Shown piece after piece: positions 5,168 through 54,931 of a DNA stretch of 64,000 bases. The stretch lies in NCBI GenBank assembly GCA_017795085.1, contig CP051246.1, forward strand, positions 806,514 to 870,513, in the 5' to 3' direction. The stretch is from Salegentibacter sp. (lineage in GTDB: Bacteria; Bacteroidota; Bacteroidia; Flavobacteriales; Flavobacteriaceae). Under the pieces are notes generated by a model that ran no database searches, had not been told where the DNA came from, and saw nothing but the letters and a program-made list of their open reading frames with translations. Position numbers and translations under genes: made by a program. Position 1 is the first letter of the stretch. Each line of letters begins with the position of its first letter.

Positions 5168-5208
5168 TGTTTTATTTTTTTAGCTATCTTTATGAAAAAC
5201 AAGTAGAT

Positions 5209-21604: not shown

Positions 21605-21802
21605 TAAAACAATGGGTAATCTAAAAATAATGTTTATGGCAGAGTGTTAATTGATTTAACCTAAGATCATCCAACATCAATATAGACTTCCCGCAATTTC
21701 CCTTATATTTGTCATATTCCCACCCTACAGGAATATTTAATTGCAGCCAAATCATTATATTCAGGCTGTTTAAATATAATTAAGAGCTCCAACCTACCAT
21801 AC

Positions 21803-22183
21803 ATGGCAAAAGCAGATATCGATTTTGAAAAGGAACTCTGGGACGCAGCCAACGAACTTAGAGGTGCCGTTTCAGAAAACAATTATAAAAACTACATTCT
21901 TCCCCTGGTATTTCTTAAACACCTTAGCGAACGTTACGAGGTGATTCGGGAGGAATTAAAGGATTTAATGAACGATCCTTTTTCAGATTATCATACTACC
22001 GATACCGAAGAAATAAATTATGTGCTGGAAGACCGGGACGAATACCGTTCCCGCAATACTTTTAAAATTCCGGAAAAAGCGTCCTGGCAGTATTTAAAAG
22101 ACAATGCTGAGCAGGATGATATCAAGGTAAAAGTAGATGATACTTTTGATGAAATCCAGGGACTGCTTATCGAATGCCAGTAG
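21803..22183 (+). pseudogene. hsdM: 5' fragment of a type I RM methyltransferase (hsdM), about 120 codons
   Basis: FEKELWDAANELRG...YILPLVFLKHLSERY is an HsdM N-terminus. The catalytic domain is absent. Confidence 0.85.
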
Positions 22184-23615: not shown

Positions 23616-24932
23616 ATGAAAACTTATTTTGGAAGAATATCAATAGAAAATAAACCGAAAATAATAGAAAGTGTACGATTAACAATAAATAAAAAAAAAT
23701 ATGAGATTGAGTTTTCCTCCAGTGAAAGAAGTTTTCGCAATATAAAATTGATTCATGGAATATTTAATGGATTAGGTGATGTAACCTTAATAAATTGTAG
23801 AAATACTTCCTCAGAAAGTGGAGCTGGAGCAGAAATTAATAGGTATCAAGTTAATTATATTTTAAAAGGAATTCAGATTGAAAACTTAGAAGATTTTTTC
23901 TTCGATTGTGCTTATATCCGAATGCAAGGTTTACTTGATTGGACAAAGCTCTATTCTGTTGAATACCTTCGAGAAGGTCAAAAAAGAAGTCTAATTGTCA
24001 AAGATTTAGAGAAAATATTATTCCATGAAGGCAACCTTTTTTCAATCAAAATTTATGCTGCTAATACAATATCTTTATCTAGAAATCCAGATAGACGAAC
24101 TATAATAGAAAACGCAGGTTTTGAAATCACCAGTAAACTCCATCAAAAACATAATTTTTGGGATTATTTAGAAGTTTTTCGGGAACTTCAAAAAATAGTA
24201 TTGATCTTAGGGAATAGAAAGACCGATATCAATTTTGCGAATTTTCATAAAGAAGGTATTGATCCCGTGGATCTATTATGGAAAGACAGTATTTCAATAG
24301 GTCAGCCTTCCACAATGGGCCCATTTGTTGAATTTAAGGAAATTCAACCTGATTTAGATAGAATTCTTAAAACCTGGTTCGGTAATAAAGATATTCATAC
24401 TAGTATAGATTTAATTCTAGAGAAATCAATAAATGTTAAACTAAGCAGAGAGAACCATTTTTTAAATAATTGCTTTGCATTAGAAACATTTCATCGCCGA
24501 TTCAAAAATTATAAATTATTTGATAAGGAAGAATTCAAATCAATAAAAAGTAATATTTTACAATCCATTGAAAATCCGGAATTATCAAAACTTATTGAAA
24601 ATAATCTAGCTCACATCAATGAACCTAATTTTAGAAGTAGATTATTAGATTTTAAAACTGACTTTACTTTAATCTTACCCTCCGAGTGGGATACTTCAGA
24701 ATATATTAGGAAAGTTGTGAAAACTCGAAATTATTTAGTTCATAGAAGTTCTGCTAAAAATATTTTGGACAAATTTGATATGCTTTATGCTGCTTTCTTT
24801 CTTGAATTAATCACAAGGATATATATTTATAAAATTTTAGGTCTTAAAGAAGAGTTATGTCACAGATTATTAGAACAAAATGGAGAGAGAATCCAGGGAT
24901 TCTATTTTTCACACAAAAGAATGCGATTCTAA
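23616..24932 (+). CDS. ApeA-like protein (ApeA N-terminal domain + HEPN RNase), probably anti-phage
   Basis: FLNNCFALETFH and the HEPN motif RNYLVH (Rx4H) near the C-terminus. Confidence 0.75.
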   Translation: MKTYFGRISIENKPKIIESVRLTINKKKYEIEFSSSERSFRNIKLIHGIFNGLGDVTLINCRNTSSESGAGAEINRYQVNYILKGIQIENLEDFFFDCAYIRMQGLLDWTKLYSVEYLREGQKRSLIVKDLEKILFHEGNLFSIKIYAANTISLSRNPDRRTIIENAGFEITSKLHQKHNFWDYLEVFRELQKIVLILGNRKTDINFANFHKEGIDPVDLLWKDSISIGQPSTMGPFVEFKEIQPDLDRILKTWFGNKDIHTSIDLILEKSINVKLSRENHFLNNCFALETFHRRFKNYKLFDKEEFKSIKSNILQSIENPELSKLIENNLAHINEPNFRSRLLDFKTDFTLILPSEWDTSEYIRKVVKTRNYLVHRSSAKNILDKFDMLYAAFFLELITRIYIYKILGLKEELCHRLLEQNGERIQGFYFSHKRMRF

Positions 24933-25482: not shown

Positions 25483-25675
25483 AGCCAAAAATCTGAATAA
25501 TCGTCCCCAGTTCTATGAAGATCTTGTTTTTTTACAATGGTTTAAGCAAGTTCCATCACATTCCCTCATTTCCCTTATATTTGTAATATTCCCTCCCTAC
25601 AGGAATATTTAATCGCAGCCAAATCATTATATTCAGGCTGTTTAAATAAAAACTAAGAGACCCAACCTACCATAC

Positions 25676-25831
25676 ATGGAAAAAGCAGATATCGATTTTG
25701 AAAAGGAACTCTGGGACGCGGCCAACGAACTTAGAGGTGCCGTTTCAGAAAACAATTATAAAAACTATATTCTTTCCCTGGTATTCCTTAAACACCTTGG
25801 TAGAGTGAGAGTCAAAACTTTCCTTAATTAA
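25676..25831 (+). pseudogene. hsdM: Second, shorter hsdM 5' stub duplicated together with its promoter region
   Basis: 25568-25798 is a close copy of 21696-21925. The ORF MEKADIDFEKELWDAANELRG...FLKHL then diverges and stops. Confidence 0.85.
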
Positions 25832-25912
25832 CCTATTTTTCCTAAATTGTACCACGTAATAATCCCCCTGCAGATTATTAGCTTGCATAAAGCAAATCGA
25901 ACCAACTTATCT

Positions 25913-28900
25913 ATGATTCATAACGAAGACTCGAGGGTGAAGATCCCTTCCATTCTGCATTTTACCAGATTGGGGTATAAATACTTATCTTTAAAACACA
26001 GAAGGTGGGATCTGGAAACCAATATCTTTACAGATATCTTCCGGAAAAAATTAGCCGATCTAAACCCAACTGTAGAAGAAGACGAGATTACCCGTTTTAT
26101 TGAAGAAGTAAAGCTCAGCCTGGCTAATGAAGATCTGGGTAAGGAATTTTATGAAAAGCTGACTTCCCAGTCCGGAATTAGAATGCTGGACCTTGAAAAC
26201 TTCGAAAAAAACCAATTCAACGTGGTAACCGAGCTTCCCTACAAAAATGGCGAGGATGGTTTCAGGCCGGATATCATACTTTTAATAAATGGATTGCCTT
26301 TAGTATTTATTGAAGTAAAAAAACCTAATAACCGCGAAGGGGTGATCGCTGAGCGCAATCGCATTGCCACCCGTTTTCAAAATAAAAAATTCAGAAGGTT
26401 CGTAAACATCACTCAAATGATGGTCTTTTCCAATAATATGGAATATGATCCTGAAGATTTAGAACCTATCCAGGGTGCCTTTTATGCTTCTCCTTCCTAT
26501 TCGCGACCAGTATTTAATTATTTCAGGGAAGAAGAAAACCTGAATCTTAAAAAACTACTTAAAGACCAGGACGAAAAAATAGAAGATGAGGTCCTAAAGG
26601 ATAATAACCTGGTGATTATAAAACATTCTCCGGAGTTTATTACGAACAAAAACCCTGATAGTCCTACCAACCGGGTTTCCACTTCCTTGTTTTCCAAAGA
26701 AAGACTGAAATTCATTCTGAAATATGCCATTGCTTATGTGGAAGAATCAAGCGGAATGCAAAAACACATAATGCGTTACCCTCAATTATTCGCAACCAAG
26801 ACTATTGAAGAGAAATTGGAGGATGGCATAAGAAAAGGAATTATTTGGCACACCCAGGGAAGCGGAAAAACTGCCCTGGCCTATTATAATACCAGGTTTC
26901 TGACCGAATACTACCAAGGAAAAAATATCATTCCAAAGTTCTACTTTATCGTAGATAGACTGGATCTTTTACTTCAGGCAAAGGCTGAATTCACTAGCCG
27001 TGGCTTAGTGGTTCATATTGTGAATTCTAAGGATGATTTTGTAAACGATATAAAAACTAAAGCCGCCGTTCATAATGATCGTGGGGAATTAGAAATAACC
27101 GTTGTAAACATTCAAAAATTTTCTCAGGATTCCCAGGTTGTACAGGCGCAGGATTACGACGTTAATGTACAGCGTGTTTATTTCCTTGATGAAGTACATC
27201 GAAGTTATAACCCTGAAGGCAGCTTCCTTGCCAATCTTGAAAATTCCGATAAAAACGCTATAAAAATCGGACTTACCGGTACGCCTTTATTGGGCTCCGA
27301 CTATAACTCTAAAAGCCTCTTTGGAGATTACATTCATAAATATTACTACAACGCCTCTATTGCCGATGGTTATACGCTGAGGTTAATTAGGGAAGAAATT
27401 GACAGTAATTATAAGATAGAACTCGAGAAAATACTTCGGGAAATTGAAGTTCAACAGGGCGATGTAGAGAGACAAAAGATCTTCGCGCATCCTGCCTATG
27501 TAGAACCTTTCCTGGATTATATTATTGATGATTTCGAGAAATTTAGAAAGCTTAATGCCCCCAATGTAGGTGGAATGGTGGTTTGTGATAGTTCAGACCA
27601 GGCTAAAATGCTCTTTGAAATTTTCCAATCTAAATATGCGCAAAACGAAAGTCTGGAGTTCCGGGAAGCGGCTGAACCGGTAACTACCTATAAAACCAAA
27701 ATTAAAAATTCCGTTAAGGTTAAAACTGCAGCGCTTATTCTCCACGATATTGGTACTAAAGATGAACGAAAGGACCTTGTAGAAGATTTCAAGGACGGAA
27801 AAATAGATTTCCTTTTTGTTTACAATATGCTCCTTACCGGCTTTGATGCAAAACGCCTTAAAAAACTTTATCTCGGCAGGGTGATTAAAAGACATAATCT
27901 ACTCCAAACCCTCACCAGGGTGAACCGCCGCTATAAAGATTTCAGGTATGGATATATCGTAGATTTTGCTGATATAAGAGCTGAATTCGCCCGTACCAAT
28001 AAAGATTATTACGACGAGCTTCAACAGGAGCTGGGTGATGAGATGCAACACTATTCTGATATCTTTAAATCTAAAGAAGAGATCATAAAGGATATTGAGA
28101 AGATTGAGGATAGCTTATTTCATTTCAACACCAGAAATTCTGAAATTTTCTCTCAGCAAATTTCAGAGATCACCGATAGAAAAACAATGGTGGATATGGT
28201 AAAGGCCCTGGCAAATGCCAAAAGCCTGCATAACCTTATCAGATTAATTGGGCACGAAGACCTTCAGGAAAAACTGGATTTCAAAAAGCTGAACCAGCTT
28301 TACCGGGAGGCCAACAATCATTTAATGCTGCTTAACCAAAAGGAAGCCTTAGAAAATGACGTTGATACCACCAATCTTTTAAATATCGCCCTGGAAGATG
28401 TGATTTTCAAGTTTCATAAAACCGGAGAAGAAGAGTTGATTCTGGCCGATAAACTTAAAAATACACTTCGCCAAACCCGGGAAGCTTTAGCCGATAATAT
28501 CGACAAAAAAGACCCTAAATTTGTCAGCCTTTATGAGGAGCTGGAAAGGCTCTTTAAAAAGAAAAAATTAAACGAGGTAAGCCAGGAAGATATGCGCGAG
28601 AATATCGGGACACTCCGTGAAATTCACGCTAAGATCAAGGAGCTGAACCGGCAAAATGATTTGCTGAAACAGAAATATGATGATGATCCTAAATACTGCA
28701 GGATTCATAAGAGATTGCTGGAAAACGAAAGCTTATCCCAATCTGAAAGAAAACTTTTTAATGTGCTTCAACAAATAAAAGAAGGGGCCGACCTACACAT
28801 CATTCAAAATAGCCGCATATTGGAAAATGAAAGTTATCTGGATAGAATGATGATTAAACTGGTAGTAAACAAATTTGTAAAAGAGAATAACATCCCGCTT

Positions 28901-28978
28901 AATGCGGAAACCTCCAGGTTTATCAATAATCTGGTAGTACAGGAATATATAAACGAATTTCAAGGACATACTGCATAA
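25913..28978 (+). CDS. hsdR: Type I restriction enzyme subunit R. Probable start ATG 25913
   Basis: RPDIILLINGLPLVFIEVKK, WHTQGSGKT, DEVHRS, GLTGTP, MLLTGFDA and QTLTRVNR. Confidence 0.95.
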   Translation: MIHNEDSRVKIPSILHFTRLGYKYLSLKHRRWDLETNIFTDIFRKKLADLNPTVEEDEITRFIEEVKLSLANEDLGKEFYEKLTSQSGIRMLDLENFEKNQFNVVTELPYKNGEDGFRPDIILLINGLPLVFIEVKKPNNREGVIAERNRIATRFQNKKFRRFVNITQMMVFSNNMEYDPEDLEPIQGAFYASPSYSRPVFNYFREEENLNLKKLLKDQDEKIEDEVLKDNNLVIIKHSPEFITNKNPDSPTNRVSTSLFSKERLKFILKYAIAYVEESSGMQKHIMRYPQLFATKTIEEKLEDGIRKGIIWHTQGSGKTALAYYNTRFLTEYYQGKNIIPKFYFIVDRLDLLLQAKAEFTSRGLVVHIVNSKDDFVNDIKTKAAVHNDRGELEITVVNIQKFSQDSQVVQAQDYDVNVQRVYFLDEVHRSYNPEGSFLANLENSDKNAIKIGLTGTPLLGSDYNSKSLFGDYIHKYYYNASIADGYTLRLIREEIDSNYKIELEKILREIEVQQGDVERQKIFAHPAYVEPFLDYIIDDFEKFRKLNAPNVGGMVVCDSSDQAKMLFEIFQSKYAQNESLEFREAAEPVTTYKTKIKNSVKVKTAALILHDIGTKDERKDLVEDFKDGKIDFLFVYNMLLTGFDAKRLKKLYLGRVIKRHNLLQTLTRVNRRYKDFRYGYIVDFADIRAEFARTNKDYYDELQQELGDEMQHYSDIFKSKEEIIKDIEKIEDSLFHFNTRNSEIFSQQISEITDRKTMVDMVKALANAKSLHNLIRLIGHEDLQEKLDFKKLNQLYREANNHLMLLNQKEALENDVDTTNLLNIALEDVIFKFHKTGEEELILADKLKNTLRQTREALADNIDKKDPKFVSLYEELERLFKKKKLNEVSQEDMRENIGTLREIHAKIKELNRQNDLLKQKYDDDPKYCRIHKRLLENESLSQSERKLFNVLQQIKEGADLHIIQNSRILENESYLDRMMIKLVVNKFVKENNIPLNAETSRFINNLVVQEYINEFQGHTA

Positions 28979-30604
28979 ATGACAACCACAGTAGATTTTC
29001 AAAACAAAACAAAAGAATTAATAAATGGCCTTAAAGGCATCTGTTCCACTTATGGATTAGGAAATGACGGTGATGAATACAAGGTAATCACCCAGGCATT
29101 TCTTTATAAATTTCTAAACGATAAATTCACCCGCGAGATCAAGCAACTTAAGCCCGAACTCGCGCAAAGTGAAAACTGGCAGGAAGAGATCGAAAAAATT
29201 TCAGACGAAGAGTATGAATTGCTCACTATGCAGCTGGAAGCCGATACTGCCGTTTTTTATCCCAGGCACCTCATTGCCCACTTATTCGCACTGCAAAATA
29301 AAGATGATTTCGCCAAAACCTTTGACGATACCCTTATGGATATCGCCATTATTAACAACGAGATCTTCTCGGTACGTACCGTTGGCGGTTCAAAGGAACC
29401 TCTGTTTGAACGCATAAGCGAAATAGTTGAAGCTTCTGAAAGAAATTCTTTCTGCAAGGCTATTCTAAACAAATTGGTAGAATTTAGCTTTGAACATATT
29501 TTTGAGGAAAAATATGATTTCTACGCCTCTATTTTTGAATACCTCATCAAAGATTACAACAACGACAGCGGGGGTACTTATGCCGAATATTATACGCCTC
29601 ACGCGGTAGCTAAAATTATGGCTTCTATCCTGGTGACAGAAGAAGTACAGGACGTCACCTGCTACGATCCAAGTGCGGGTTCCGGAACCTTATTGATGAA
29701 CTTGGCACACGCCATTGGAGAAGATAAGTGTACCATCTATTCCCAGGATGTATCCAAAAAATCCTCCAAGCTTTTAAGACTGAACCTTATCCTGAATAAT
29801 CTGGTCCATTCCCTCCAGAATATTGTACGTGGTAACACCATTTTGGCACCCTTTCACGAAAAAGAAAACGGTGAGTTGCAGCAGTTCGATTATATCGTTT
29901 CTAATCCTCCGTTTAAACTTGATTTTAGCGAATACCGGGATGACCTGGACACCAAGAAAAATCGCAACCGTTTTTTTGCCGGAATTCCCAATGTTCCCAA
30001 GAACAAAAAGAGCAGTATGGCTATTTACAGCCTGTTTCTGCAGCATATTATGTTTAGCCTCCAAGAGGGTGGTAAAGCTGCCGTTGTGGTCCCTACCGGC
30101 TTTATCACCGCACAATCCGGTATTGATAAAAAGATTCGCCAGGAACTGGTAAATCGTAAAATACTGGCCGGGGTGGTTTCTATGCCTTCCAATATTTTTG
30201 CTACTACCGGTACGAATGTTTCTATAGTTTTCCTGGATAAAAGCAACAAAGAAGACGTAGTGCTTATCGATGCCTCCAATTTAGGAACCAAGGTAAAAGA
30301 GGGCAAGAACCAAAAAACCGTTTTAAACGACCAAGAAGAACAACAAATTATAGACACTTTCAATAATAAAGAAGTCGTAGATGATTTTTCGGTGGTGGTG
30401 AGCTATGAGGATATCAAGACGAAGAATCATTCTTTGAGTGCCGGACAGTATTTTGAGGTAAAGATTGAGTATGTTGATATTACTGCGGAAGAATTTGAAA
30501 CCAAAATGAATTCTTTTGAAGAAAATCTAAATTCGCTCTTTGCCGAAAGTAAAAGCCTGGAAAGCGAAATTCAGAATAATTTTAAGGATTTGAGATATTT
30601 GTAA
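28979..30604 (+). CDS. hsdM: Type I RM methyltransferase subunit M
   Basis: EYYTP, YDPSAGSG and VSNPPF (N6-adenine MTase motifs). Confidence 0.95.
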   Translation: MTTTVDFQNKTKELINGLKGICSTYGLGNDGDEYKVITQAFLYKFLNDKFTREIKQLKPELAQSENWQEEIEKISDEEYELLTMQLEADTAVFYPRHLIAHLFALQNKDDFAKTFDDTLMDIAIINNEIFSVRTVGGSKEPLFERISEIVEASERNSFCKAILNKLVEFSFEHIFEEKYDFYASIFEYLIKDYNNDSGGTYAEYYTPHAVAKIMASILVTEEVQDVTCYDPSAGSGTLLMNLAHAIGEDKCTIYSQDVSKKSSKLLRLNLILNNLVHSLQNIVRGNTILAPFHEKENGELQQFDYIVSNPPFKLDFSEYRDDLDTKKNRNRFFAGIPNVPKNKKSSMAIYSLFLQHIMFSLQEGGKAAVVVPTGFITAQSGIDKKIRQELVNRKILAGVVSMPSNIFATTGTNVSIVFLDKSNKEDVVLIDASNLGTKVKEGKNQKTVLNDQEEQQIIDTFNNKEVVDDFSVVVSYEDIKTKNHSLSAGQYFEVKIEYVDITAEEFETKMNSFEENLNSLFAESKSLESEIQNNFKDLRYL

Positions 30605-30605
30605 A

Positions 30606-31871
30606 ATGGACTTAAAAAGACTCAAATCTCTGATCGAATTTAAGAATGGCAAAATAGCTCCTAAAACCACTGGAAAATATCCTATCTATGGTGGTAACGG
30701 TATTTTAGGTTATTGCGATGATTATAATTATGAAGATGCAATAATTGTAGGTCGTGTGGGAGCCTATTGTGGCAGTATTCATAAAGCTGATGGGAAATGC
30801 TGGGTTTCTGATAATGCCATTGCAGGATTGCCAAAAGATTCAGAATTACTTGAATTTTACTATTACTTATTAAGAGAATTAGATTTAAATAAAAAACAGA
30901 TTGGTTCAAGTCAACCCCTATTGACCCAGGGTATTTTGAATAATTTGGATGTGCAAGTTCCTTTAAATTCCAGAATGGCAGTTAAAATCGCCAAAACCCT
31001 CTCCGACTTAGACGCCAAGATCGAACTCAATCACAAGATCAATACTGAGTTGGAAGCAATGGCTAAAACCATATACGAGTATTGGTTTGTACAATTTGAT
31101 TTTCCAGATAAAAACGGCAGGCCTTATAAATCCTCTAATGGGAAAATGCTTTTCAATGAGCAATTGAAACTGAAGATTCCTGAGGGGTGGAAAGTTAAAA
31201 CTATTTCTGAGTGGATTAAAAATGATAAAAGTGGAGATTGGGGAAAAGAAGCAGAGCAAGGAAATTATACTGAAAAAGTTTCCTGTGTAAGAGGTGCTGA
31301 TATTAATGGTTTAAATGGTAATGGAGAAGTAAATACACCTACACGTTTTATTCTTGAAAAGAACTCTCACAAAATATTAGATCCTCACGATTTAGTAGTG
31401 GAGATTTCCGGAGGAAGCCCTACCCAGTCAACCGGCAGATTAGCCTTTATCACTGAAGAAACTTTGGAAAGATTTGAAAACCCTCTGATATGTTCTAATT
31501 TCTGTAAAGCGCTCACCTTAAAGAACGAAAAATTCCTCTACAATTTTGTCTATCAATGGAATCGTTTATATGAAAACAATGTACTTTTTGGATGGGAGGG
31601 CAAAACCAGCGGTATAAAAAATTTACTTTTCGATAATTTCACTACGAATTATTATGTGCCTGTACCTCCTGAGCATCTTGCCGAAAAATTCTATGGGTTT
31701 ATGCAACCTCTTCAGGCTAAAAAGCAAAAGAATCTGGTAGAAATAAATGAACTTGAAAATTTAAGAGACTGGCTTCTACCAATGTTGATGAATGGCCAGG
31801 TAAGTGTTGGTGAAGCTGAGGAAGAATTGAGAATGGTGGCGGAGGAGAATGTAAATTATGGGGATAAATAA
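30606..31871 (+). CDS. hsdS: Type I RM specificity subunit S
   Basis: Two TRDs with conserved spacers (LDAKIELNHKINTELEAMAKTIYEYWF and LENLRDWLLPMLMNGQV). Confidence 0.93.
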   Translation: MDLKRLKSLIEFKNGKIAPKTTGKYPIYGGNGILGYCDDYNYEDAIIVGRVGAYCGSIHKADGKCWVSDNAIAGLPKDSELLEFYYYLLRELDLNKKQIGSSQPLLTQGILNNLDVQVPLNSRMAVKIAKTLSDLDAKIELNHKINTELEAMAKTIYEYWFVQFDFPDKNGRPYKSSNGKMLFNEQLKLKIPEGWKVKTISEWIKNDKSGDWGKEAEQGNYTEKVSCVRGADINGLNGNGEVNTPTRFILEKNSHKILDPHDLVVEISGGSPTQSTGRLAFITEETLERFENPLICSNFCKALTLKNEKFLYNFVYQWNRLYENNVLFGWEGKTSGIKNLLFDNFTTNYYVPVPPEHLAEKFYGFMQPLQAKKQKNLVEINELENLRDWLLPMLMNGQVSVGEAEEELRMVAEENVNYGDK

Positions 31872-31878
31872 TTAGATA

Positions 31879-33858
31879 ATGACAAACAAAAAGGAATCTT
31901 TGATAAAAACTAGTGATGAAATCTTAACTTATTTATTAGAACATAAAAAGAACAATCCCCATTTCACATTTGCTTTACGTCAAAGAAACAGTGTTCAGTC
32001 AAAAGAAAGAAGACTATCTAATGGCCAATGGTTTCAGGGATCGGATTACATATATGTCCCTCTTTTTAAAAAAGGTGATTCCCATAGAAAAATTAAAACC
32101 ATAGGTTTTGTACTTGGCTTTGATGATCAAGGTGAAATATCAAACAACTACATTGAAATTTCCTTCAGAGGAGGAGTTGATAATAAAAATGAAATTGATT
32201 TTCATAATGAATTAGCTCAAAATATTGGATTGAATCTGAACAAAGATAACTTCGGTAAATTAAATTATAGCAACCCAAAGGAGTACTTAAAAAATCTTGA
32301 ACATTATATAACTGAATTCCGAGACACCGCCATTAAGCTCTTAAACAAACATAATATTGAGAACAAATATTTAATAAAGGAGGCGGCATTTGAGAAAAAT
32401 TTATCAAGAATAAATAATTTCAAAAAAGAAATGAAAACAAAAGTAGAAGCGTTTTCAGAGACAAAAGTTGTGGCTGAGTCTTTAAACCAAATCCTTTTCG
32501 GACCACCCGGAACTGGGAAAACATTTCATTTGCTCCAGGAGATTATTCCAACTTATGAAAAGAAATCAACCAAAAAACCAAACGAAATTGTAGAATCGGA
32601 AATTATCTCTAAACTGCCCTGGTGGAAAATTTTTGCTTTAGTCTTACTTGAAAAAGACAACCAAACGGTTCCGCAGATAAAAGAACATCGTTTCGTGAAA
32701 TATAAATTGGAATTCTCTAATACCAACAGTTTAACTCAAACCATATGGGGACAATTATCATCACATACTATTGAGGAGTCCACTACAGTAGAATATGCTT
32801 CCAGGCAAGGTTCTTTGATTTTTGATAAAGAAGAAGAATCCGTTTGGTTCATCGCAAAGACCAAAGATCCTGTTCTTGAGGAATTAAATACTATACTGGA
32901 AGAAATAAAGAAACAAAAAGAATCTTCTGTTGAAATTCAATCCAACTTTAAGTTTATAACCTTTCATCAATCAACCTCCTATGAAAATTTTGTAGAAGGA
33001 ATTACTCCTGTTTTTGAGGAAGATAGTTCAAATAAGGCAGACCAATTAACTTATGAAATTAAAAAGGGGAGCTTTTATACCGCCTGTGACGAGGCAGCAA
33101 AGCTTGCCGGCTTCTTAGGCTTAAAAGATTGTTTGGAGCATACAAAGGAAGAGCGAATTGCAAAATTTAAAAATGCCGCGCCCTACTGCTTATTAATCGA
33201 TGAAATTAATCGCGGGAATGTTTCTGCCATTTTTGGTGAATTAATCACTTTAATTGAAGAAGATAAGCGTTTAACGAAAAATGAGGTTATAGTTGAATTA
33301 CCCTATTCCAATAAAAAGTTTGGAGTACCTCCAAACCTTCATTTAATCGGCACTATGAACACTGCAGACCGCAGCGTAGAAGCTTTAGATACAGCCCTCC
33401 GAAGAAGATTCAGCTTCAAAGAAATGCCTCCGAAATATGACCTTGATGAACTTACCTATGAATATGCCGGTACGACAGGAAGAGAAATATTAGAAAAAAT
33501 TAATAAGAGAATAGAAAAGCTGCTGGACCGAGATCACCTTATTGGCCATTCCTACTTTTTTCTAAAAGACGATGAAAATACTGAGGAAAAACTTATCAAT
33601 GCTTTTTATAGAAATATCATCCCACTATTACAGGAATACTTTTTTGGCGACTATGCTAAAATTGGTGCTGTTTTAGGAGAAGGATTTATTTATTCAGAAG
33701 CAGAAGAGGATGACACCGCCTTTGCTAGCGGCTTCGAAAATGAAGATTATATCGAAAAGCCCATCTATCACATTATAGATTATACTGAAGGTAAAAACAT
33801 TCAGAAAGAAATGAACTTTGAAAAAGCCATACGGCGGTTAATGAATCAGGATATATAG
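31879..33858 (+). CDS. mcrB: McrB-family AAA+ GTPase (type IV restriction)
   Basis: GPPGTGKT, ITFHQS..YENFVEG, IDEINRGN, GTMNTADRS and LRRRF. Confidence 0.93.
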   Translation: MTNKKESLIKTSDEILTYLLEHKKNNPHFTFALRQRNSVQSKERRLSNGQWFQGSDYIYVPLFKKGDSHRKIKTIGFVLGFDDQGEISNNYIEISFRGGVDNKNEIDFHNELAQNIGLNLNKDNFGKLNYSNPKEYLKNLEHYITEFRDTAIKLLNKHNIENKYLIKEAAFEKNLSRINNFKKEMKTKVEAFSETKVVAESLNQILFGPPGTGKTFHLLQEIIPTYEKKSTKKPNEIVESEIISKLPWWKIFALVLLEKDNQTVPQIKEHRFVKYKLEFSNTNSLTQTIWGQLSSHTIEESTTVEYASRQGSLIFDKEEESVWFIAKTKDPVLEELNTILEEIKKQKESSVEIQSNFKFITFHQSTSYENFVEGITPVFEEDSSNKADQLTYEIKKGSFYTACDEAAKLAGFLGLKDCLEHTKEERIAKFKNAAPYCLLIDEINRGNVSAIFGELITLIEEDKRLTKNEVIVELPYSNKKFGVPPNLHLIGTMNTADRSVEALDTALRRRFSFKEMPPKYDLDELTYEYAGTTGREILEKINKRIEKLLDRDHLIGHSYFFLKDDENTEEKLINAFYRNIIPLLQEYFFGDYAKIGAVLGEGFIYSEAEEDDTAFASGFENEDYIEKPIYHIIDYTEGKNIQKEMNFEKAIRRLMNQDI

Positions 33859-34064: not shown

Positions 34065-35556
34065 GGGTTTCCTCAGAAATTCAGAAATTAAAATTATGTA
34101 TTTCTGCGAATTTCACTAGGTTGGTTACAAATAAGATCATCCCTATCCAGGAATGAGAAGTATTGTCTAATTTAGCTTTAATTTGGTTGAGCCCGTATGT
34201 TTGTTTGGCCTGCCCAAATTTGGCTTCTATATGATTACGTTCGTTGAACTCCTTTTTACGTTTTCTCTTTTGGTAGGCATTAAGTTCAAGCTGCTTGCCT
34301 TTTGAAGCTACGGTCATCCGGATGCCGCGCTCCTTGCACCACTTGCGGTTTTTATTGGTGCCATAGATCTTATCCACCTGAATGACTTCCGGGTAATAGC
34401 CGAGCTGTACTTTATAGGCCTCTGCATGAGGAATGAGGTCAGCACTTTCATTGTAGGCATCCCAGCTTAAGGTCTGCGCTTTAACAAAACCATCTATTTG
34501 GGCCAGTCCGATCTTGGTACCGAACTCTACTTTCTTCCCTGTCTTGCCCCGAACAATAGGACGTACATAAGGTTGACTGATGCTGACAATACGGTCCTTA
34601 CAGGTGTTGGTCTTATTATCGTACATTTCTCTTTGCTGATCATTAACCGTCTGAATTACCCAAAAATCCCTGAGCATCTTCCGGGATAATGGGGTATGAT
34701 CTAATTTGTCAAGCATTAAATTGATGTTGCCAATATTACGATCTAAACAGTTTAGATGATAACGGATAGCCCTTCTTAGGGTTTTTTTATTGGCCTGTCT
34801 CTTCTTGGATTCCGCCAGGTATTTCTTTCGGGCCACTTTTCTGTAAGTCCGCGGCTTGACCGGAAGCTCATCCTTTAGATGCTCATAGAGGGTATCAATG
34901 ATGGCCTCGGTCTTTTCACGAGCCACATTAAGTAGCCCCAAATCATTGGGATAGGTAATATACTGATCTGCCACCGTGGCATCGAGTTTTAATTTCCCTT
35001 TATTCTGCCAAGAAGTTCTCTTGGGGGAAGAGGCTTCCTGTGGAGCCCCACCATAACAAATTGTGGAGAGTACCTCAGAGAATTCATTGAAAGTATGATT
35101 CCCCAGTTTCTTTCTCCACTCTACAAAAAGAGAAGCAGAGAAAAGCGGCTGCGCAGAAAATTCCTCCAATCCTAAAAAGAACTGCATGTAGGGGTTCTCT
35201 TCGATGATCTGGACCGTTTGCTCATCACTAAGATTTAATTTGTGTTTAATAATCAGACTACCAATAACAATACGCGGATTAATGGCATTACGACCAACTT
35301 GAGAAAAATGTTTGGAAAAAATAGCTACACAACGGTCCCAGGGAAAATGGTAGGCTAATTGAATCCAACGGTTATTTGGGTTAAGTTTCATTTGGTAAAG
35401 ATTACCAAAATTTTCAATTTTGACCTGGTACTGGGAAGAATAATTTATCATATGCAAAGTTATTACATAAATATACTATTTTCCTTGCATGTAAACAATT
35501 GAAATATAGATTTATTTAACTGATTCAAAAGGGTTTATAGCCTTATGAGGAAGGCC
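34065..35556 (-). mobile_element. IS5-family insertion sequence, copy 1 (1492 bp)
   Basis: Imperfect terminal IRs (GGGTTTCCTCAGAA / TTATGAGGAAGGCC) and TAATTA target duplication (34059-34064 and 35557-35562). Confidence 0.92.
34081..35457 (-). CDS. IS5-family DDE transposase
   Basis: LKLDATVA..ITYPNDLGLL, VRGKTGKKVEFG, VDKIYG and ERNHIEAKFG. Confidence 0.92.
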   Translation of the reverse strand: MHMINYSSQYQVKIENFGNLYQMKLNPNNRWIQLAYHFPWDRCVAIFSKHFSQVGRNAINPRIVIGSLIIKHKLNLSDEQTVQIIEENPYMQFFLGLEEFSAQPLFSASLFVEWRKKLGNHTFNEFSEVLSTICYGGAPQEASSPKRTSWQNKGKLKLDATVADQYITYPNDLGLLNVAREKTEAIIDTLYEHLKDELPVKPRTYRKVARKKYLAESKKRQANKKTLRRAIRYHLNCLDRNIGNINLMLDKLDHTPLSRKMLRDFWVIQTVNDQQREMYDNKTNTCKDRIVSISQPYVRPIVRGKTGKKVEFGTKIGLAQIDGFVKAQTLSWDAYNESADLIPHAEAYKVQLGYYPEVIQVDKIYGTNKNRKWCKERGIRMTVASKGKQLELNAYQKRKRKKEFNERNHIEAKFGQAKQTYGLNQIKAKLDNTSHSWIGMILFVTNLVKFAEIHNFNF

Positions 35557-36662
35557 TAATTAACGTGCTTCCCAAAGCAGAGAAACGTAAATCGGATGAC
35601 CAAAAGAAATTAAAATGGAATCGGGCTTTAATCGATATGTTGAGGGTGGTAAATGGTTTTGAGGTTAAAGCACCTAGTTCAACAGATTTAAAACTTAAAA
35701 ATAACTCCGTTCTCGACCTGTACTTTGAACTTTTTGTGAGCGAAGTAGAATACTTGTTACATAGAGGGCTTGTCAAAAAATACCGGAAAACCGAAGGTAA
35801 TTTAACTACATTAAAAGGTCAATTACTTTTTACCCAACAAATAAGTAAAAATGTCATCCATAAGGAGCGTTTCTATACCAGGTACACTACTTATGATCCT
35901 GAACATTTATTGCACATAATTTTATATCAAACCATCCTAGTGTTAAAAAAAATAAACACCAATGCAGCCATATCAGGAAGAATTAATGCATTAATGCCTT
36001 GATTCTTAATTTTCCTGAAATGCCCAATGTAAAAATTTCAGAGACTGTATTTGATAAAATTATTCTCAATAGAAAAACAAAAGGTTATAAAAAAGCGGTG
36101 GATATTTCACGGCTGATACTACTACACTACCACCCTGACTTAAGCAAGGGTAAAAATGATGTTCTGGCCTTAATGTTTGATATGAATTTGCTTTGGGAAC
36201 AATTTGTATTGGTGAGTTTAAAAAAGAATAAGGGATTAAAAGTAAAAGGTCAAAATTCAAAAAACTTTTGGAAACCCAATGGCGGTAAAAGAAGAACCAT
36301 ACGGCCAGACATTGCGGTGAAATTTAATGGGAATGAATACGTCATAGATACTAAGTGGAAATTAGTAGAAAAACGTCCGTTAATCGAAGACATCAGGCAA
36401 ATGTACGCCTATCATCACTATTTCGATGCTAAAAAGGTAACCCTACTATATCCTGGAGATAGCATTTATATAGCAGGTAAATTCGTCGATATTGAACAGC
36501 AAAATAAAACAGCCGATTTAGAATGTGGTCTAATGTTTACTCAATTTGATCATTCTGTTAAGCATTGGCAAAAGCAAATTGCTAATATGGTAACGGAATG
36601 GATTAAAGCCTAGACTTGATTCAATAAAAATTAAATTATAAAAGAACGAAATGAGACATCAT

Positions 36663-38945
36663 TTATGAGGTAGTCTCTTCTAGCAGCTTATCATATAAAA
36701 AATTCCCAAATTGTTTGATTAGTTCTGAATCAACGTACTCACATTCTAATAATACTCTTCTTAAGTCGTCCCTGTTTAATCTTAGCTTTTTTATTCCTAG
36801 TGCAAGTAAAAATTCAGGTAACGCTTCTCCTTCATCAGTATTCCAGTTTTTTATTAAACTTATTAGAAATGATGTCATCATCAAACTACTATCTGAATCA
36901 AGGTCATAGGAAAAATAGGAGAATTCTCCGGCTCTTAGTAAACTAGCTTGTATTATTCCATCATTAAAACGATTAAAATTTTCAACTGCTAATAAATTCT
37001 TTATATAATTTGAACTTTTTAGAGATCTTTCTGAATTTATAGGTTTATTGGAAAGGTCATGAAGTATAGAAGAAATAGTGAAATAAACTTGACTCTGATA
37101 TGCTATATCTTCCTTCACTTTAAAGTCCCAGTAAGCAAAACCTTTACGTAATTTTAAGGATGTACCATCACATTTTAAAAGGAAAACATTATTTGACAAA
37201 CCTTTTTCCTTCCGGTTCTCTCTGAGAATTTTTAATCTATTTGACACATACTCTTGTAATTCTGTATTCTGATCCTCATCAATTTCCCCGATCATATCTT
37301 CGAAAAAATTTTTCTCAAGATCCCAAGATGTGTTACCCCTAGAGGGGGTAGTAATAATTTTTTCAGTGAATACAACTGGAAATGTATTACCACCATCTTT
37401 GCCAAATCCTAAATTACTAACCGTAGTTTTGTGATAGTTTTCAGAGGTGGTTCTAATAAGACCTATAAAATAGACAATACTTAGTTTGTCAAATTTCCGT
37501 AAATGTCTACTCACGTGGAAATAGTTTTTTCCTGTAACCAAAGCCGAGCCAACAACTACAACACTACCAGAAGAATTACTTATTTTATCCAATTCATTAA
37601 TACTGATTTGCTCTGGAGGATCGGCAAATTTTATTTGGGATTTAATATAATTTGATAGATTTTTTGAACCATTATCATCCAGGTGAATAAAATATTTGGT
37701 ATTAGCTGGAATATAAGTGTTAATTTTCCTTTTTAATTTTTTTTGAAATTTTCCTGGTGCATTTCCTTCCTTAACTAATTCATATAATTTTTCAGTATCA
37801 AGAAATATTTCATAATTTTCATTAGGTGCGGTCTCGTTATAATATGTCCTAATTATATTATCCGTTTTATTTTGATGACTTTTTATGAAGTTGCTTAAAA
37901 ACTTGGGTGCATCAGTTTTTACTAGTTTCAGAAACTGAATTTTTGGCTGAATAGAGAGAAAAACATCACTTTGAAGTCTTATGGGTCTAGAATGATTTTT
38001 ACAGAGTTTACACTTACTAGAATTATCATAAGTTCTGAAAACTTCTAATCCCTTAGGAAATTTTCTTGAATAAGTCAGGTTACAAAGAACATTACTTTTA
38101 TAGTTTATGTATTTCGAAGTTTTACCCAGAAAGAATAAAACCAGAATCTGGTCTCTATCCGCAATTTCCTTGCTAGTTAATCGACTAATAATATTTCCCG
38201 ATGTAGAAGAGGATACTAAAATAAGGGAATCATTGGGGAATCGAGAGGTTTTATTTTCTAGACCTTCATAAGAGTTAAAACTAAAAACAGGTATAGAATC
38301 AAATCTATGGTTAAATCTCCTTTTTAATTCAAAAAGTGAAAATGCTAAAACGTTTATGGATGATGTATCACAATATATTGCCGATGAGTTTTTATTTAGA
38401 TAAGGTAATAATTGAAAAGACAAAAAGAAAATTTCACAACTATTTACAAGGATATTACCAGTTCTAATAAATTTTTCACTGTGTTTTTTAGATGGGAAAA
38501 CAAAATGATGGTCTGGTGTGGATTCAACTAATCCTCCATTACTTTCAAAAATTTTTAAGCTTCCATTCCTTTTTAAATTTTGTAAAAATTCTTTTTCTAT
38601 ATCCATAGAAATCTCATTTTTTACCGAATTTAAATTTCCCTTATCATCAAACTGATAAAGCCGAAAAAAATTGGAAAAGTAGTCTTTTGAGAACCCCGGT
38701 ACCCTTTTGAAAGTATCATATACTTCGCTTTCTAGAAATAAACCTCTAAAATTTTCATCACAATATTCGGGCAAAATCACGATTATTTCATCGGATAATG
38801 GATTTACCTGGAAATAATGATCAATTTCATTGATTAAACTCTCAACCTTTCCTGTTTTCTGCTGGTGTAAAAATAAAACAGTAAAAGACTTATTCCTTTT
38901 GAAATTCTTGAAGTCTGTATATTGGAATATAAAGGTGTCATTCAT
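36663..38945 (-). CDS. 760-aa protein with two degenerate phosphoribosyltransferase-like domains and a CxxC motif
   Basis: HFVFPSKKHSEKFIR, YCDTSSI, PRPP-loop-like LILVSSSTSG and VVVVGSALVTG, and CKLC. Confidence 0.6.
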   Translation of the reverse strand: MNDTFIFQYTDFKNFKRNKSFTVLFLHQQKTGKVESLINEIDHYFQVNPLSDEIIVILPEYCDENFRGLFLESEVYDTFKRVPGFSKDYFSNFFRLYQFDDKGNLNSVKNEISMDIEKEFLQNLKRNGSLKIFESNGGLVESTPDHHFVFPSKKHSEKFIRTGNILVNSCEIFFLSFQLLPYLNKNSSAIYCDTSSINVLAFSLFELKRRFNHRFDSIPVFSFNSYEGLENKTSRFPNDSLILVSSSTSGNIISRLTSKEIADRDQILVLFFLGKTSKYINYKSNVLCNLTYSRKFPKGLEVFRTYDNSSKCKLCKNHSRPIRLQSDVFLSIQPKIQFLKLVKTDAPKFLSNFIKSHQNKTDNIIRTYYNETAPNENYEIFLDTEKLYELVKEGNAPGKFQKKLKRKINTYIPANTKYFIHLDDNGSKNLSNYIKSQIKFADPPEQISINELDKISNSSGSVVVVGSALVTGKNYFHVSRHLRKFDKLSIVYFIGLIRTTSENYHKTTVSNLGFGKDGGNTFPVVFTEKIITTPSRGNTSWDLEKNFFEDMIGEIDEDQNTELQEYVSNRLKILRENRKEKGLSNNVFLLKCDGTSLKLRKGFAYWDFKVKEDIAYQSQVYFTISSILHDLSNKPINSERSLKSSNYIKNLLAVENFNRFNDGIIQASLLRAGEFSYFSYDLDSDSSLMMTSFLISLIKNWNTDEGEALPEFLLALGIKKLRLNRDDLRRVLLECEYVDSELIKQFGNFLYDKLLEETTS

Positions 38946-40122
38946 TACCTAATGGATATATTAATGAAATTAACGAGCCTGAACATTCGGGATGTTCTGA
39001 AAATGTATTATCTGAGTTATTCCAATCTGTTAGTTTAATACCTACTGAATTTTCGGACCTGACGTAAGGTTTATTTCGCATATCACGAATGACATCTACT
39101 CTTCCACTTTTAATTCTTAAAAATCCCTTACCACTAATAGTTTTTAAAACACGATCTAAACCCAAGCCTTTTCTTTCCTTCCTAATGCCAACGCTAGATG
39201 TATTGTGTTTATATAAACATTCCTTTATAAGCTCTACTTCGCGATTAATACTAATTGAATTTAAATCTGTAATATTTCCATATCTTCTTGCCAAACCAGG
39301 ACCACTATCTAGAATCGAAATTTCTAGAAAGTAAACTTCGCTATTCTCGTTCAATGGTAAATTTGAATTGAGATATTTATAAAGTGTATTAGAATCCTTA
39401 TACTGATTCAGATAGGAGTTTAATTTTCTCTTTTGAAAACGAAAATATGCAGCTCTAATATTTGGATAAAGATTTTGAAAGTCTATATCTGTTCTTGCAT
39501 GCTCATCGGTATTAAAAAATAATTCATGAGTGATTTTAGAAAAATCATCAATTTTATTTTTAATTGAATTTTGAAAAACTCCCTTATTAAAACTTCCTAC
39601 TTTTTTAAAAACAGGGTATAGATTAAAGTCCAGTTCCTCTTCGGAAACCAGAGATTTATCAGAATTATAAAAAAAACGGGAATAGCCTCTTTTGCTTAAG
39701 TCATGGTCAAAGCAATAAATTGGAACTGAATCGTTTTGTTTTAGCTTTAAATACTCCATTCTAGAAAAATAATCCTTACTTAATCCCTTTAATAAAGACT
39801 TTATATTTTTACCTTCTGTATTAAAGATTTTTTTTTCCCAAGAAAGTACAACAATAGGATAAACAAACTCTTGATCTAGATATTCTTCTAAGTTTTTAAA
39901 CTCTGTAATAGGTAGGTATAAATTTCCAGAATTTGGTTGTCTTACCCAGGTAGCAATGAATTGCAGAAAGCTTGGAAATACGCTAAAATCTTTATGAGTG
40001 ATTTTCGTTGGGAGAACTAAATCCAATAAATTTTCATTAGAAAATTTTTCTAGCTTTTGATATAATTCATTCAAATAAGCTAAAGTTATATTTTGCTTGA
40101 TTTTAAGCTGTTTATTATTCAA
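38938..40122 (-). CDS. GHKL (histidine-kinase-like) ATPase with no sensor or TM domain. TTG start
   Basis: N-box HELFFNTDEHA, G1 ISILDSGPGL, G2 RKGLGL and G3 GSLISL. Overlaps the 760-aa gene. Confidence 0.75.
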   Translation of the reverse strand: MNNKQLKIKQNITLAYLNELYQKLEKFSNENLLDLVLPTKITHKDFSVFPSFLQFIATWVRQPNSGNLYLPITEFKNLEEYLDQEFVYPIVVLSWEKKIFNTEGKNIKSLLKGLSKDYFSRMEYLKLKQNDSVPIYCFDHDLSKRGYSRFFYNSDKSLVSEEELDFNLYPVFKKVGSFNKGVFQNSIKNKIDDFSKITHELFFNTDEHARTDIDFQNLYPNIRAAYFRFQKRKLNSYLNQYKDSNTLYKYLNSNLPLNENSEVYFLEISILDSGPGLARRYGNITDLNSISINREVELIKECLYKHNTSSVGIRKERKGLGLDRVLKTISGKGFLRIKSGRVDVIRDMRNKPYVRSENSVGIKLTDWNNSDNTFSEHPECSGSLISLIYPLGNE

Positions 40123-40380
40123 ACTATTCGTTTATAAATTGGAACATCTATACTATTAAATTTGGAGGAAGTTAGGAATTACTTTTTATAGGCCAAATAA
40201 ATTGAATAAGGATTTTTTAGGACTTCGATAATTGTTTTTTCTTTAAACTACCGGTGAACTAATCGGTGAACTCACCAAATATGAATTTTTAGTAGATAAG
40301 TTTTAAATGTTAAAATTAGGGCTTGTACCTAGTTTACACCTCAAACTCCCAAACCCCCAGTGTTTTAAGTAAAAGAAAAC

Positions 40381-40399
40381 TTCTGTATTGGTAAATAAA
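40381..40399 (+). repeat. attR core (duplicate of the mnmE 3' end)
   Basis: Identical to 4969-4987 and preceded by TTACACCT at 40334. Confidence 0.9.
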
Positions 40400-41128
40400 G
40401 ATTTCGTTTTAGGATTTAAAAAATATCTGAATAGTAGAGCTAAAACAAAGTCTAATACCCTGTTATCCCAAAACTCTAAATACACCTATTACAATAAGTT
40501 TAGAGCTGCTTTACGTCAGGCATTTGATGATGGATATACCAGGCGAAATTTTGCTATAACGGTCAAAGGATTTGCTCAGGGGGAAACAACACGGGAATTC
40601 CTTACGCAGGAGGAATTACAAGCTATGGCAACAGCCTACTGCAAGCACCAGGTTCTTAAAAATGCATGTATGTTTAGTTGTTTAACCGGGCTTAGGTGGA
40701 GTGATATAAACAAGCTGACCTGGCTTGAAGTTAGGGATGAGGAGGAAGGATCCCGCTTAATTTTTAAGCAAAAGAAAACCTCGGGACAGGAATATCAATA
40801 TATTTCTAATCAGGCAAGACAGCTTTTAGGAAAAAGAAAAAGAGACAATGCCCGGGTATTTCAAGGATTGAAATATGGAGCCCATTTTAATTCAGAAATA
40901 CTGAGATGGTGTATGCGTGCCGGCATAACTAAACATATAACCTTCCATAGTGCAAGACATACCCACGCAGTGCTACTATTGGAATATGGTGCTGATATCT
41001 ATACTGTTTCAAAAGTTTTGGGACATAAAGAAATAAGAACCACCCAGGTTTATGCAAAGATTGTAGATAAGAAAAAGAAGGAAGCAGCCAACCTAATTCC
41101 TGAACTTGAAATGGATTATGAGTTTTGA
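40400..41128 (+). pseudogene. 5'-truncated second integrase copy (lacks the first 138 codons), fused directly to attR
   Basis: From 40400 the DNA matches integrase copy 1 from 5623 onward. Catalytic motifs are intact. Confidence 0.9.
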
Positions 41129-41917: not shown

Positions 41918-42217
41918 TCAAATTTTAATTTTATCGGGATCTTGCCTGTTGGAAAAAAGGGATAATATTTCTATAGATTTTTTATTTACCCGATAGTATA
42001 AACTGTTAAATTTTGCAACTACAGCTCTTCTAACATTTTTCTTTTTGGAAACTTGAAATAGCTCTGGATTTTTTGAAATTAATTCTATGGTATGATCCAA
42101 TTCTCGAGAAAAATTTTCTAATTCTCTTTTAGACCAATTTTCCTCCAAATATTGTATTGTATTTTTTAATTCGGAAAGGGCGTGTTCAGTCCACAGGATT
42201 TTATAACCATTTCTCAT
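41918..42217 (-). CDS. RelE/ParE-family toxin
   Basis: YKILWTEHALSEL...ISKNPELF...LYYRV...IEILSLFSNRQDP. Confidence 0.85.
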   Translation of the reverse strand: MRNGYKILWTEHALSELKNTIQYLEENWSKRELENFSRELDHTIELISKNPELFQVSKKKNVRRAVVAKFNSLYYRVNKKSIEILSLFSNRQDPDKIKI

Positions 42218-54383: not shown

Positions 54384-54931
54384 TATGATCAAAAGAGACT
54401 TAGAAGATAAAATTATAAATCGTTTTGGTACTGGTAAAGCTATCTTACTTATTGGTCCTAGACAGGTAGGGAAGACAACACTTTTCAATAAATTACTGGA
54501 AGAAAAAGATTATTTATTCCTAAACGGTGACGATCCGACGGTTAGAAAATTACTTTCAAATCCTAATCTGGAGCAGCTCAAGAATATAATAGGTAAGCAT
54601 TCTATAGTATTCATTGATGAAGCTCAGCGAATAGAAAATATTGGAATTACTCTTAAGCTGATTACTGATCAATTAAAATCGGTACAGTTATTAGTGAGTG
54701 GTTCTTCTGCTTTCGAATTAAATAATCAAACTCAGGAACCCCTAACCGGAAGAAAATGGGAGTATCACCTTTACCCTATTTCCTGGACAGAATTTGAAAT
54801 GGAGATTGGCTATTTAAAAGCCGAACAACAGTTAGAATTAAGGATTTTGTACGGCATGTACCCGGATGTAATTAATAACCCCGGGGAAGAAAAAGAAGTT
54901 TTAAAGCAATTAACCGACAGCTATCTATATA

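Follow-up and report, generated by a model that had tools for sequence, protein, structure and literature searches.

This study concerns a two-gene operon at positions 36,663 to 40,122 of a 64,000-nucleotide stretch of DNA from Salegentibacter sp. (contig CP051246.1, positions 806,514 to 870,513), the whole of which is referred to here as the window. The operon is a full-length example of the cassette that PADLOC lists as phage defence candidate PDC-M65. We interpret it as a PDC-M65 defence cassette with an ATP-gated effector of the phosphoribosyltransferase (PRTase) fold. A probability of roughly 0.55 is given to this interpretation, and the doubt lies mostly in the mechanism and in whether PDC-M65 defends at all.

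Both genes are intact and lie on the minus strand. Gene A (394 aa, TTG start codon) precedes gene B (760 aa, ATG start codon), and the two overlap by 8 nt (ATGAATGA). Gene A was matched by the PADLOC hidden Markov model (HMM) PDC-M65A at 4e-127 (422 bits), with residues 5-392 aligned to positions 3-394 of the 398-position profile. Gene B was matched by PDC-M65B at 7.1e-245 (813 bits), with residues 1-753 aligned to positions 1-758 of 763. A PADLOC scan of A and B at E≤1 returned PDC-M65 models only, with no match to a ShosT or retron-effector model. The gene arrangement is also that of PDC-M65, the genes being adjacent and co-oriented with A before B. Because A and B align full-length to homologues at 45-60% identity, neither looks truncated. 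The nearest sequenced relatives of the locus are only 54-60% identical. The locus is a new, intact and fairly divergent copy of a catalogued candidate, and hence not an undescribed system.

An earlier note, made from the letters of this DNA alone, had described a two-gene overlapping operon in very AT-rich DNA and had put it forward as an undescribed defence system that could not be assigned to any named one. The operon and its base composition were as described (29.5% GC, against 35.3% for the window). The PADLOC check named beforehand in that note, with a match to an already named system as the adverse outcome, returned PDC-M65 from end to end, and the central claim of novelty fails. The fold assignments and the placing of the pair in a defence island are supported, so the note holds in part.

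In the preprint by Payne, Hughes, Fineran and Jackson (2024, bioRxiv 10.1101/2024.01.29.577857), PDC-M65 is one of 145 phage defence candidates obtained by guilt-by-embedding, for which BREX, DISARM and type I restriction-modification (RM) operons served as hosts. Its entry is in the supplement of the preprint (bioRxiv 10.1101/2024.01.29.577857), and its HMMs are in PADLOC-DB v2.0.0. PDC-M65 is a computational candidate only. None of the paper texts searched mentions the name, reports a test of the candidate or describes its folds. Literature searches combining GHKL or HATPase, PRTase and defence found nothing relevant, and proteobacterial plasmid records annotate the pair merely as two hypothetical proteins. 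The copy examined here has the A-then-B order, the coupling and the type I RM association of PDC-M65. No structural difference was found; the pair is adjacent to and convergent on an RM block, not embedded in one. A PDC-M65 pair in a Bacteroidota defence island will not surprise a specialist.

Gene A, a predicted GHKL ATP-binding protein

The AlphaFold2 (AF2) model of A is confident (pLDDT 89.5, pTM 0.91) and comprises an N-terminal alpha/beta domain followed by a GHKL domain (Table 1). The N box of the latter reads E200-L-F-x-N204-T-x-E-H-A, which is the kinase/RsbW form E-x-x-x-N-x-x-x-H-A. It is followed by a G1 box (D272-S-G-P-G276), a G2 box (G319-x-G321-L) and a G3 box (G382). In alignments that take in a clade of ~30% identity and proteobacterial relatives, E200, N204, D272, G274, G276, G319, G321 and G382 are invariant across phyla, as are P38, T58, D139, C302 and S309. 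The invariant residues of A nearly coincide with the Bergerat-fold motifs.

A family profile of 163 sequences was aligned using hhalign with a profile of the histidine kinase (HK) catalytic domains of the same genome, giving a probability of 83% (E 8.8e-6). The alignment pairs the N, G1 and G2 boxes and places an insertion of ~35 residues in A between the N box and G1. Single GyrB, ParE, MutL or HtpG-like sequences aligned weakly with the A family, and a solid score was obtained with the HK catalytic-domain profile only. Foldseek matches of the A model were weak but consistent, GyrB/ParE being the best (E 1.5e-3) and HK catalytic and ATP-binding domains also being found. Pfam HATPase_c does not match A itself; sub-threshold matches (E 0.004-0.04) fall at the right place in three distant relatives. 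Scans of A, B and 37 homologues of each with Pfam and NCBIfam produced no meaningful match, and a weak CTD11 (ABC-3C) signal in 10/37 A homologues (best E 0.0014) was judged to be noise. By its motifs and by the hhalign match, A has a histidine-kinase-type GHKL ATP-binding domain, with putative ATPase or kinase activity.

We take A to be a soluble protein; no membrane segment is predicted in it, and its maximum 19-residue Kyte-Doolittle hydropathy is 0.63. Neither a HisKA/dimerisation and histidine phosphotransfer (DHp) domain nor a Response_reg domain was found in A, B or the Pfam-scanned neighbours, and the N-terminal domain of A is alpha/beta in the AF2 model rather than a helical hairpin. 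Judged by a DHp/HisKA domain and a response regulator, A is not a two-component sensor histidine kinase. HMM searches of PDB sequences and Foldseek found no fold match for the N-terminal domain. Some distant relatives have other sequence in place of its first ~120 residues, and several relatives align over residues 120-391 only. We regard it as a candidate sensor or partner-binding domain, since such variability is as expected of a sensing domain. The A family contains 1056 clusters at 50% identity with E≤1e-3, 343 of them with E≤1e-30.

RsbW, SpoIIAB, SiaB and HK catalytic domains share with A the form of the N box and the G1, G2 and G3 boxes, and RsbW-type kinases also resemble A in having no DHp domain. 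SiaC, a partner-switch substrate, is a weak Foldseek match of A (rank 18). A differs from the RsbW type in its unrelated N-terminal domain of ~190 residues and in the insertion of ~35 residues noted above. STAS or PP2C partner genes are not found here, and the kinase activity of A is putative. The anti-phage systems Detocs and Ambrosia, whose basis is two-component signalling, likewise use a histidine-kinase-like ATPase, and the Detocs effector acts on nucleotides. They differ from the present locus, which has no receiver domain, phosphotransfer protein, HisKA/DHp domain or sensor membrane domain.

Gene B, a protein with two PRTase-like folds

The AF2 model of B is of moderate confidence (pLDDT 79.8). 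Foldseek against the PDB matched it to dozens of orotate PRTases (OPRTs), hypoxanthine-guanine PRTases and PurR with probabilities of 0.99-1.0 and TM(target) of ~0.5. Against BFVD the matches were UMP synthase, adenine PRTases and, weakly, synthetases of phosphoribosyl pyrophosphate (PRPP). The model thus contains the PRTase core fold, a five-stranded parallel sheet plus a PRPP loop. From secondary structure and motifs, B contains two beta-alpha-beta cores of the PRTase type, and the Foldseek matches, listed without query coordinates, were assigned to domain 1 from the same two sources.

Domain 1 has the hood motif H147-F-V-F-P-S-x-K-H-x-x-K-F-I-R, for which the OPRT counterpart is F-x-L-x-S-G-x-x-S-x-x-Y/F. 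Its pyrophosphate (PPi) loop is C192-D193-T-S-S (family form C-D193-T-x-S), with D193 invariant. PRPP loop 1 reads I-S245-S-S-T-S-G250-N (family form I-S245-[SA]-[ST]-T-S-G250), with no acidic pair. PRPP loop 2, V-V-V-V-G-S-A-L-V-T-G472-K, has the canonical spacing with (G/A)-S replacing Asp-Asp. The PRPP motif of type I PRTases, two adjacent acidic residues followed by [TS]-x-G-x-T, is therefore not found in B. In canonical type I PRTases the acidic pair binds Mg-ribose. No variation is seen across phyla in the pocket residues of domain 1, and this speaks for a specific ligand or reaction. Four family profiles were also searched against PDB sequences, with no usable result.

The earlier note had read in the first gene all GHKL boxes with no transmembrane sensor, dimerisation histidine helix or nearby response regulator. 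In the second it had read two PRTase-like folds with PRPP loops lacking the acidic pair and a CxxC between the folds. These readings were borne out, the GHKL fold by hhalign and the PRTase fold by Foldseek. The loop strings VSSSTSG (residues 244-250) and VGSALVTG (465-472) and the pair C312-K-L-C315 are present as quoted.

C312-x-x-C315 is universal in the family, and the linker that holds it is a possible metal site or interface. A four-cysteine zinc finger was considered and found unsupported, as this CxxC alone is universal and C288 is lost in Proteobacteria. A CxxC beside a PRTase fold recalls the ComF proteins, and B might on that account act on nucleic acid rather than on small molecules, like ComFC, the zinc-finger protein with a PRTase fold that takes part in natural transformation, with A serving as an ATP-driven clamp on DNA of the GyrB/MutL/MORC type. 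That GyrB/ParE ATPase domains are the best Foldseek matches of A would suit this explanation. The conservation of a single CxxC does not, no DNA-binding domain was detected, and the N box of A (N-T-x-E-H-A) together with the hhalign result suits the kinase branch better than the GyrB/MutL branch. We consider it the least probable of the explanations discussed here.

The all-helical C-terminal domain of B has no PDB or Pfam match. It carries a cross-phylum motif, F657-x-R-F-N-D-G-I-I-Q-A-x-L-L-R671, and the conserved pair E711-F712. The stretch (H/N)-R-F-N-D-G-I-I-Q (residues 655-671, window ~36933-36983) is superficially like the Fic motif H-x-F-x-D-G-N-G-R. A Fic-like reading was rejected because the histidine is not conserved (Asn here) and no Fic match was obtained; the likeness is probably coincidence. 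No membrane segment is predicted in B (maximum 19-residue Kyte-Doolittle hydropathy 1.48).

Class I PRPP synthetases resemble B in having two tandem PRTase-type folds per chain, and viral PRPP synthetases are found among its BFVD matches at ranks 6 and 32 with low probabilities (0.44 and 0.21). They are, however, not in the top 50 PDB matches of B, and the acidic residues of their ribose-5-phosphate loop are absent from B.

Conservation and genomic setting of the pair

An A homologue stands directly upstream of a B homologue in 36/36 species-representative genome loci, usually with a 4-nt overlap or abutting, and these loci include the clade of ~30% identity. Distant A relatives (E ~1e-40) are followed by a B homologue of 752-760 aa with 28-30% identity. 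The pair is also carried by plasmids of Agrobacterium, Rhizobium, Pantoea, Polymorphobacter, Burkholderia and Cupriavidus. No phage-encoded B homologue was found in 50,697 phage records.

The 126 open reading frames (ORFs) nearest the 36 pairs were tallied using Pfam and PADLOC, as raw counts pooled over all loci. They include 10 HsdS, 6-9 HsdM and 4-5 HsdR proteins, 6 AAA_15/AAA_21 ATPases and 5 Schlafen-AlbA_2 proteins, and also TIR, SEFIR and OLD proteins, integrases and conjugative-transfer proteins. With the Hsd proteins of the window itself as tblastn queries, 9/46 loci were RM-linked, a count that is low because Hsd families are diverse and that tells less than the Pfam and PADLOC tallies. 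The pair is embedded within a type I RM operon at locus L081, follows hsdR-M-S on the same strand at L040 and L033, and lies in a dense defence island at L039. Type I RM and other defence genes often flank or enclose the pair, and the A-then-B coupling is strict across phyla.

Such neighbourhoods raise the question of what triggers the pair. It might guard the neighbouring type I restriction system, as PrrC guards EcoprrI, remaining silent while RM is intact and mounting an abortive response once a phage anti-restriction protein disables it. PDC-M65 was defined as embedded within operons of BREX, DISARM or type I RM, HsdS, HsdM and HsdR are its commonest neighbours, and loci such as L040, L033 and L081 and the abutment of the pair on the type I RM/McrBC block in this window all fit a guard. 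Many loci do not, having no RM gene within 10 kb (L037, L038, L084, L085). The pair here is convergent on the RM block and not inside it, and defence genes cluster for reasons besides functional coupling. We consider a guard role rather improbable; a PrrC-like trigger is compatible with B as an effector or as a sensor.

It is quite improbable, in our estimation, that the pair serves the mobile element rather than acting against phage. It would then be an addiction module of the toxin-antitoxin (TA) kind or a partner-switching regulator, in which A would neutralise a toxic B in an ATP-dependent way, or the roles would be swapped. Such a module would fit the tight two-gene coupling, the integrative-element and plasmid locations beside integrases and ParE/Phd modules, and the loci without defence context. 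Both proteins, however, are much larger than those of typical TA pairs, and repeated embedding in RM operons is more in keeping with defence. One system may also have both roles, as ShosTA does, being a TA and a defence system at once.

Three further observations were made on other copies of the pair. At L039, L040 and L033, hsdS is followed by a gene for a 496-aa AAA_15/AAA_21 (ABC-type) ATPase (7328-8818 in all three loci), which lies 8-10 bp upstream of gene A and is read in the same direction. This ATPase, which the window lacks, may be a separate embedded system or serve some variants of PDC-M65 as an optional third component. At L084, on Agrobacterium plasmid pQ15_94_1, thyX (FAD-dependent thymidylate synthase; 4751-5689) is directly upstream of the A homologue, and a ThiF/multiubiquitin/DUF6527 module is downstream of the pair. 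This is a nucleotide-metabolism and defence-type neighbourhood of a proteobacterial copy. At L034 (9668-10804) and L036 (9812-10366), in Olivibacter and Flavobacterium petrolei, the A homologue is intact and B has decayed to 378 and 184 aa, which shows that B can decay while A persists.

The earlier note had also placed the pair at the right (attR) end of an island and convergent on an RM/Mcr block, and both statements agree with the features in Table 1. Two att-like repeats enclose an integrative element of ~35.4 kb, and the gene pair lies ~255 bp inside its right end, as marked by the repeat and by three copies of an integrase region. The 22-nt repeat supports a position at the right end. 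The integrase region is present at 5596-6231, 40373-41008 and 57244-57878 with 71-94% identity, an arrangement consistent with tandem related integrative elements. The split McrC genes are convergent on B, and from its gene structure the McrBC system beside the pair looks dead.

Table 1. Coordinates of the gene pair, its domains and neighbouring features in the window.
Feature	Position	Strand	Basis or remark
Gene A (PDC-M65A family)	38938..40122	-	ORF; PADLOC HMM; AF2 pLDDT 89.5
A N-terminal alpha/beta domain, residues ~1-190	39553..40122	-	AF2 secondary structure, alignments
A GHKL (Bergerat-fold) ATP-binding domain, histidine-kinase/RsbW type, residues 190-394	38941..39552	-	Motifs, hhalign, Foldseek
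Gene B (PDC-M65B family)	36663..38945	-	ORF; PADLOC HMM; AF2 pLDDT 79.8
B N-terminal alpha/beta domain, residues ~1-115, poorly conserved between clades	38601..38945	-	
B PRTase-fold domain 1, residues ~120-300, OPRT-like	38046..38588	-	Foldseek, invariant residues
B linker with invariant C312-x-x-C315, S319, D327, P334; low AF2 confidence	37926..38045	-	
B PRTase-fold domain 2, residues ~405-535	37341..37733	-	Beta-alpha-beta topology, alignment
B C-terminal all-helical domain, residues ~540-760	36666..37328	-	AF2, alignments
Operon intergenic leader and probable promoter region	40123..40377	-	Sequence alone, no promoter call
22-nt att-like direct repeat, right end of mobile element	40378..40399	.	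Partner at 4966-4987, 21/22 identical
AbiC-like gene	19252-20265		Pfam scan
ApeA/HEPN gene	23616-24932		Pfam scan
Type I hsdR, hsdM, hsdS	25847-31871		Pfam scan
McrB-like AAA_5	31879-33858		Pfam scan
Insertion sequence (IS) transposase (DDE)	34081-35457	-	Pfam scan; between mcrB and mcrC
McrC split over two frames	35565-36002 and 35999-36613		Pfam scan; convergent on B
Truncated integrase	40388-41128		Pfam scan; beyond gene A
ParE toxin	41918-42217		Pfam scan; beyond gene A

A second copy of the IS that splits mcrB from mcrC lies at 54930-55229, with 100% identity over at least 300 nt, and the two overlapping McrC frames cover Pfam McrBC positions 21-155 and 159-318. About 230 bp upstream of the intact hsdR (25568-25798) are duplicated with 92-95% identity at 21696-21925, where the copy stands upstream of an orphan HsdM_N fragment ORF (21803-22183). 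The duplication points to the remains of an older type I RM cassette or to the scar of a cassette exchange.

A possible mechanism and its implications

The pair most likely works through an ATP-gated effector of the PRTase fold, by which nucleotide metabolism is disturbed, and the kinase- or ATPase-gated nucleotide effector proposed in the earlier note is a reasonable inference. The cassette is carried as cargo at the right end of the integrative element, beside the type I RM/McrBC block, with B translationally coupled to A. A and B would form a complex and act as one unit. An infection cue would be sensed by the N-terminal domain of A, and the ATP site of A would gate B, which would be turned on either by binding-driven switching or by Ser/Thr phosphorylation. 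The OPRT-like pocket of B would bind PRPP or a related phosphoribosyl or nucleotide ligand. B would then disturb nucleotide metabolism and block nucleotide supply or replication, and phage replication would stop.

Such a mechanism would have counterparts in the PRTase effectors of ShosTA and retron Eco11. ShosTA is likewise a two-gene defence module that includes a large protein with a non-canonical PRTase domain. ShosT binds PRPP, and PRPP binding is required for its toxicity (PMC11961720, PMC12961424). The partner in that system is the DprA-like ShosA, in contrast to the GHKL ATPase found here. ShosT also combines a pyrophosphatase with a PRTase domain, whereas B has two PRTase folds, no pyrophosphatase domain and PRPP loops free of acidic residues. 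There was no PADLOC match to ShosT, and no DNA_processg_A gene is adjacent to the pair.

The effector of retron Eco11 (type III-A3) is a PRTase-fold defence protein that is inactive when held by its partner and activated on infection (PMC12746101). Once activated it depletes PRPP, and its PRPP motif, VVILTDTIGSGNQ, is non-canonical (PMC12746101). This motif ends in S-G-N and so resembles the T-S-G-N of B, in which the corresponding stretch is LILVSSSTSGNII. The retron motif, however, keeps one Asp, B has no winged helix-turn-helix C-lobe, and there is no detectable sequence homology. No RVT_1 ORF was found in the 16.8-46 kb neighbourhood, in which the non-coding RNA was not searched for.

Several points weigh against a PDC-M65 defence cassette with an ATP-gated PRTase effector. 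The main objection is that the missing acidic pair makes classical PRPP chemistry by B doubtful. The pair is lacking from both PRPP loops in every homologue examined, across phyla and including those on Agrobacterium and Pantoea plasmids. Pfam PF00156 (Pribosyltran) matches neither B nor its 37 homologues at E≤1, and a whole-genome scan with the same model found 8 housekeeping genes, B not among them. Alignments of the B domains with the housekeeping PRTases of the genome using hhalign were not significant; the best of these sub-significant alignments fall on the two PRPP loops, that of the B family on loop 2. In the model of B, the loops that are most conserved (residues 139-164 and 313-339) have pLDDT <50, and may become ordered only with a ligand or partner. 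There are no obvious defence neighbours at L037 and L085. On the question of defence itself, no experimental test of PDC-M65 was found in the literature searched. Heterologous tests of other PDC candidates worked for 4/8, PDC-M65 not being among the candidates tested.

Because the acidic pair is missing, the chief rival to an effector is B as a sensor. Its PRTase folds would merely bind a phosphorylated ligand (PRPP, a nucleotide, an alarmone or a phage-made nucleotide) in the manner of PurR, and the output would come from the helical C-terminal domain or from the ATPase or kinase activity of A rather than from consumption of PRPP. PurR of B. subtilis binds PRPP and guanosine tetraphosphate (ppGpp), and PurR structures with ppGpp or cPRPP are among the top Foldseek matches of B (ranks 2, 13 and 22). 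The C-terminal motif FxRFNDGIIQAxLLR is conserved as strongly as the PRTase pocket and might therefore be an active site or interface. Against a sensor, no known enzyme matches the C-terminal domain, and domain 1 keeps an OPRT-like hood, the invariant Asp193 and unvarying His, Lys and Arg residues, more than would usually be retained by a simple binding module. On balance we consider a pseudo-enzyme sensor unlikely, though it deserves the most attention after the ATP-gated effector.

An effector could also be reconciled with the loops if A phosphorylated the invariant serines of B (S245, and S247 or T248) that stand in for Asp-Asp. Negative charge would then be supplied only during infection, and a dormant PRTase would be converted into one that consumes PRPP or nucleotides. 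We consider this very improbable. If true, this would amount to a novel form of gating for an abortive-infection effector, which might also be wired to guard the adjacent type I restriction system.

The practical outcome is that two 'hypothetical proteins' can be annotated as a candidate defence pair of the PDC-M65 type with defined domains. What is new is the profile-level confirmation of the GHKL domain, the fold-level confirmation of the PRTase folds and a map of residues invariant across phyla. Members of the A family occur in Bacteroidota and Proteobacteria and form over 1000 clusters at 50% identity. Loss of the acidic pair throughout the family, in a pocket that is otherwise invariant, provides a clean test of whether defence PRTase folds are enzymes or nucleotide sensors. 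If PDC-M65 protects, it would add a widespread system to the few defences that use PRTase-fold effectors (ShosTA, PsyrTA, type III retrons and Ophion), and it would be the first of these to be gated by a histidine-kinase-like ATPase without two-component partners.

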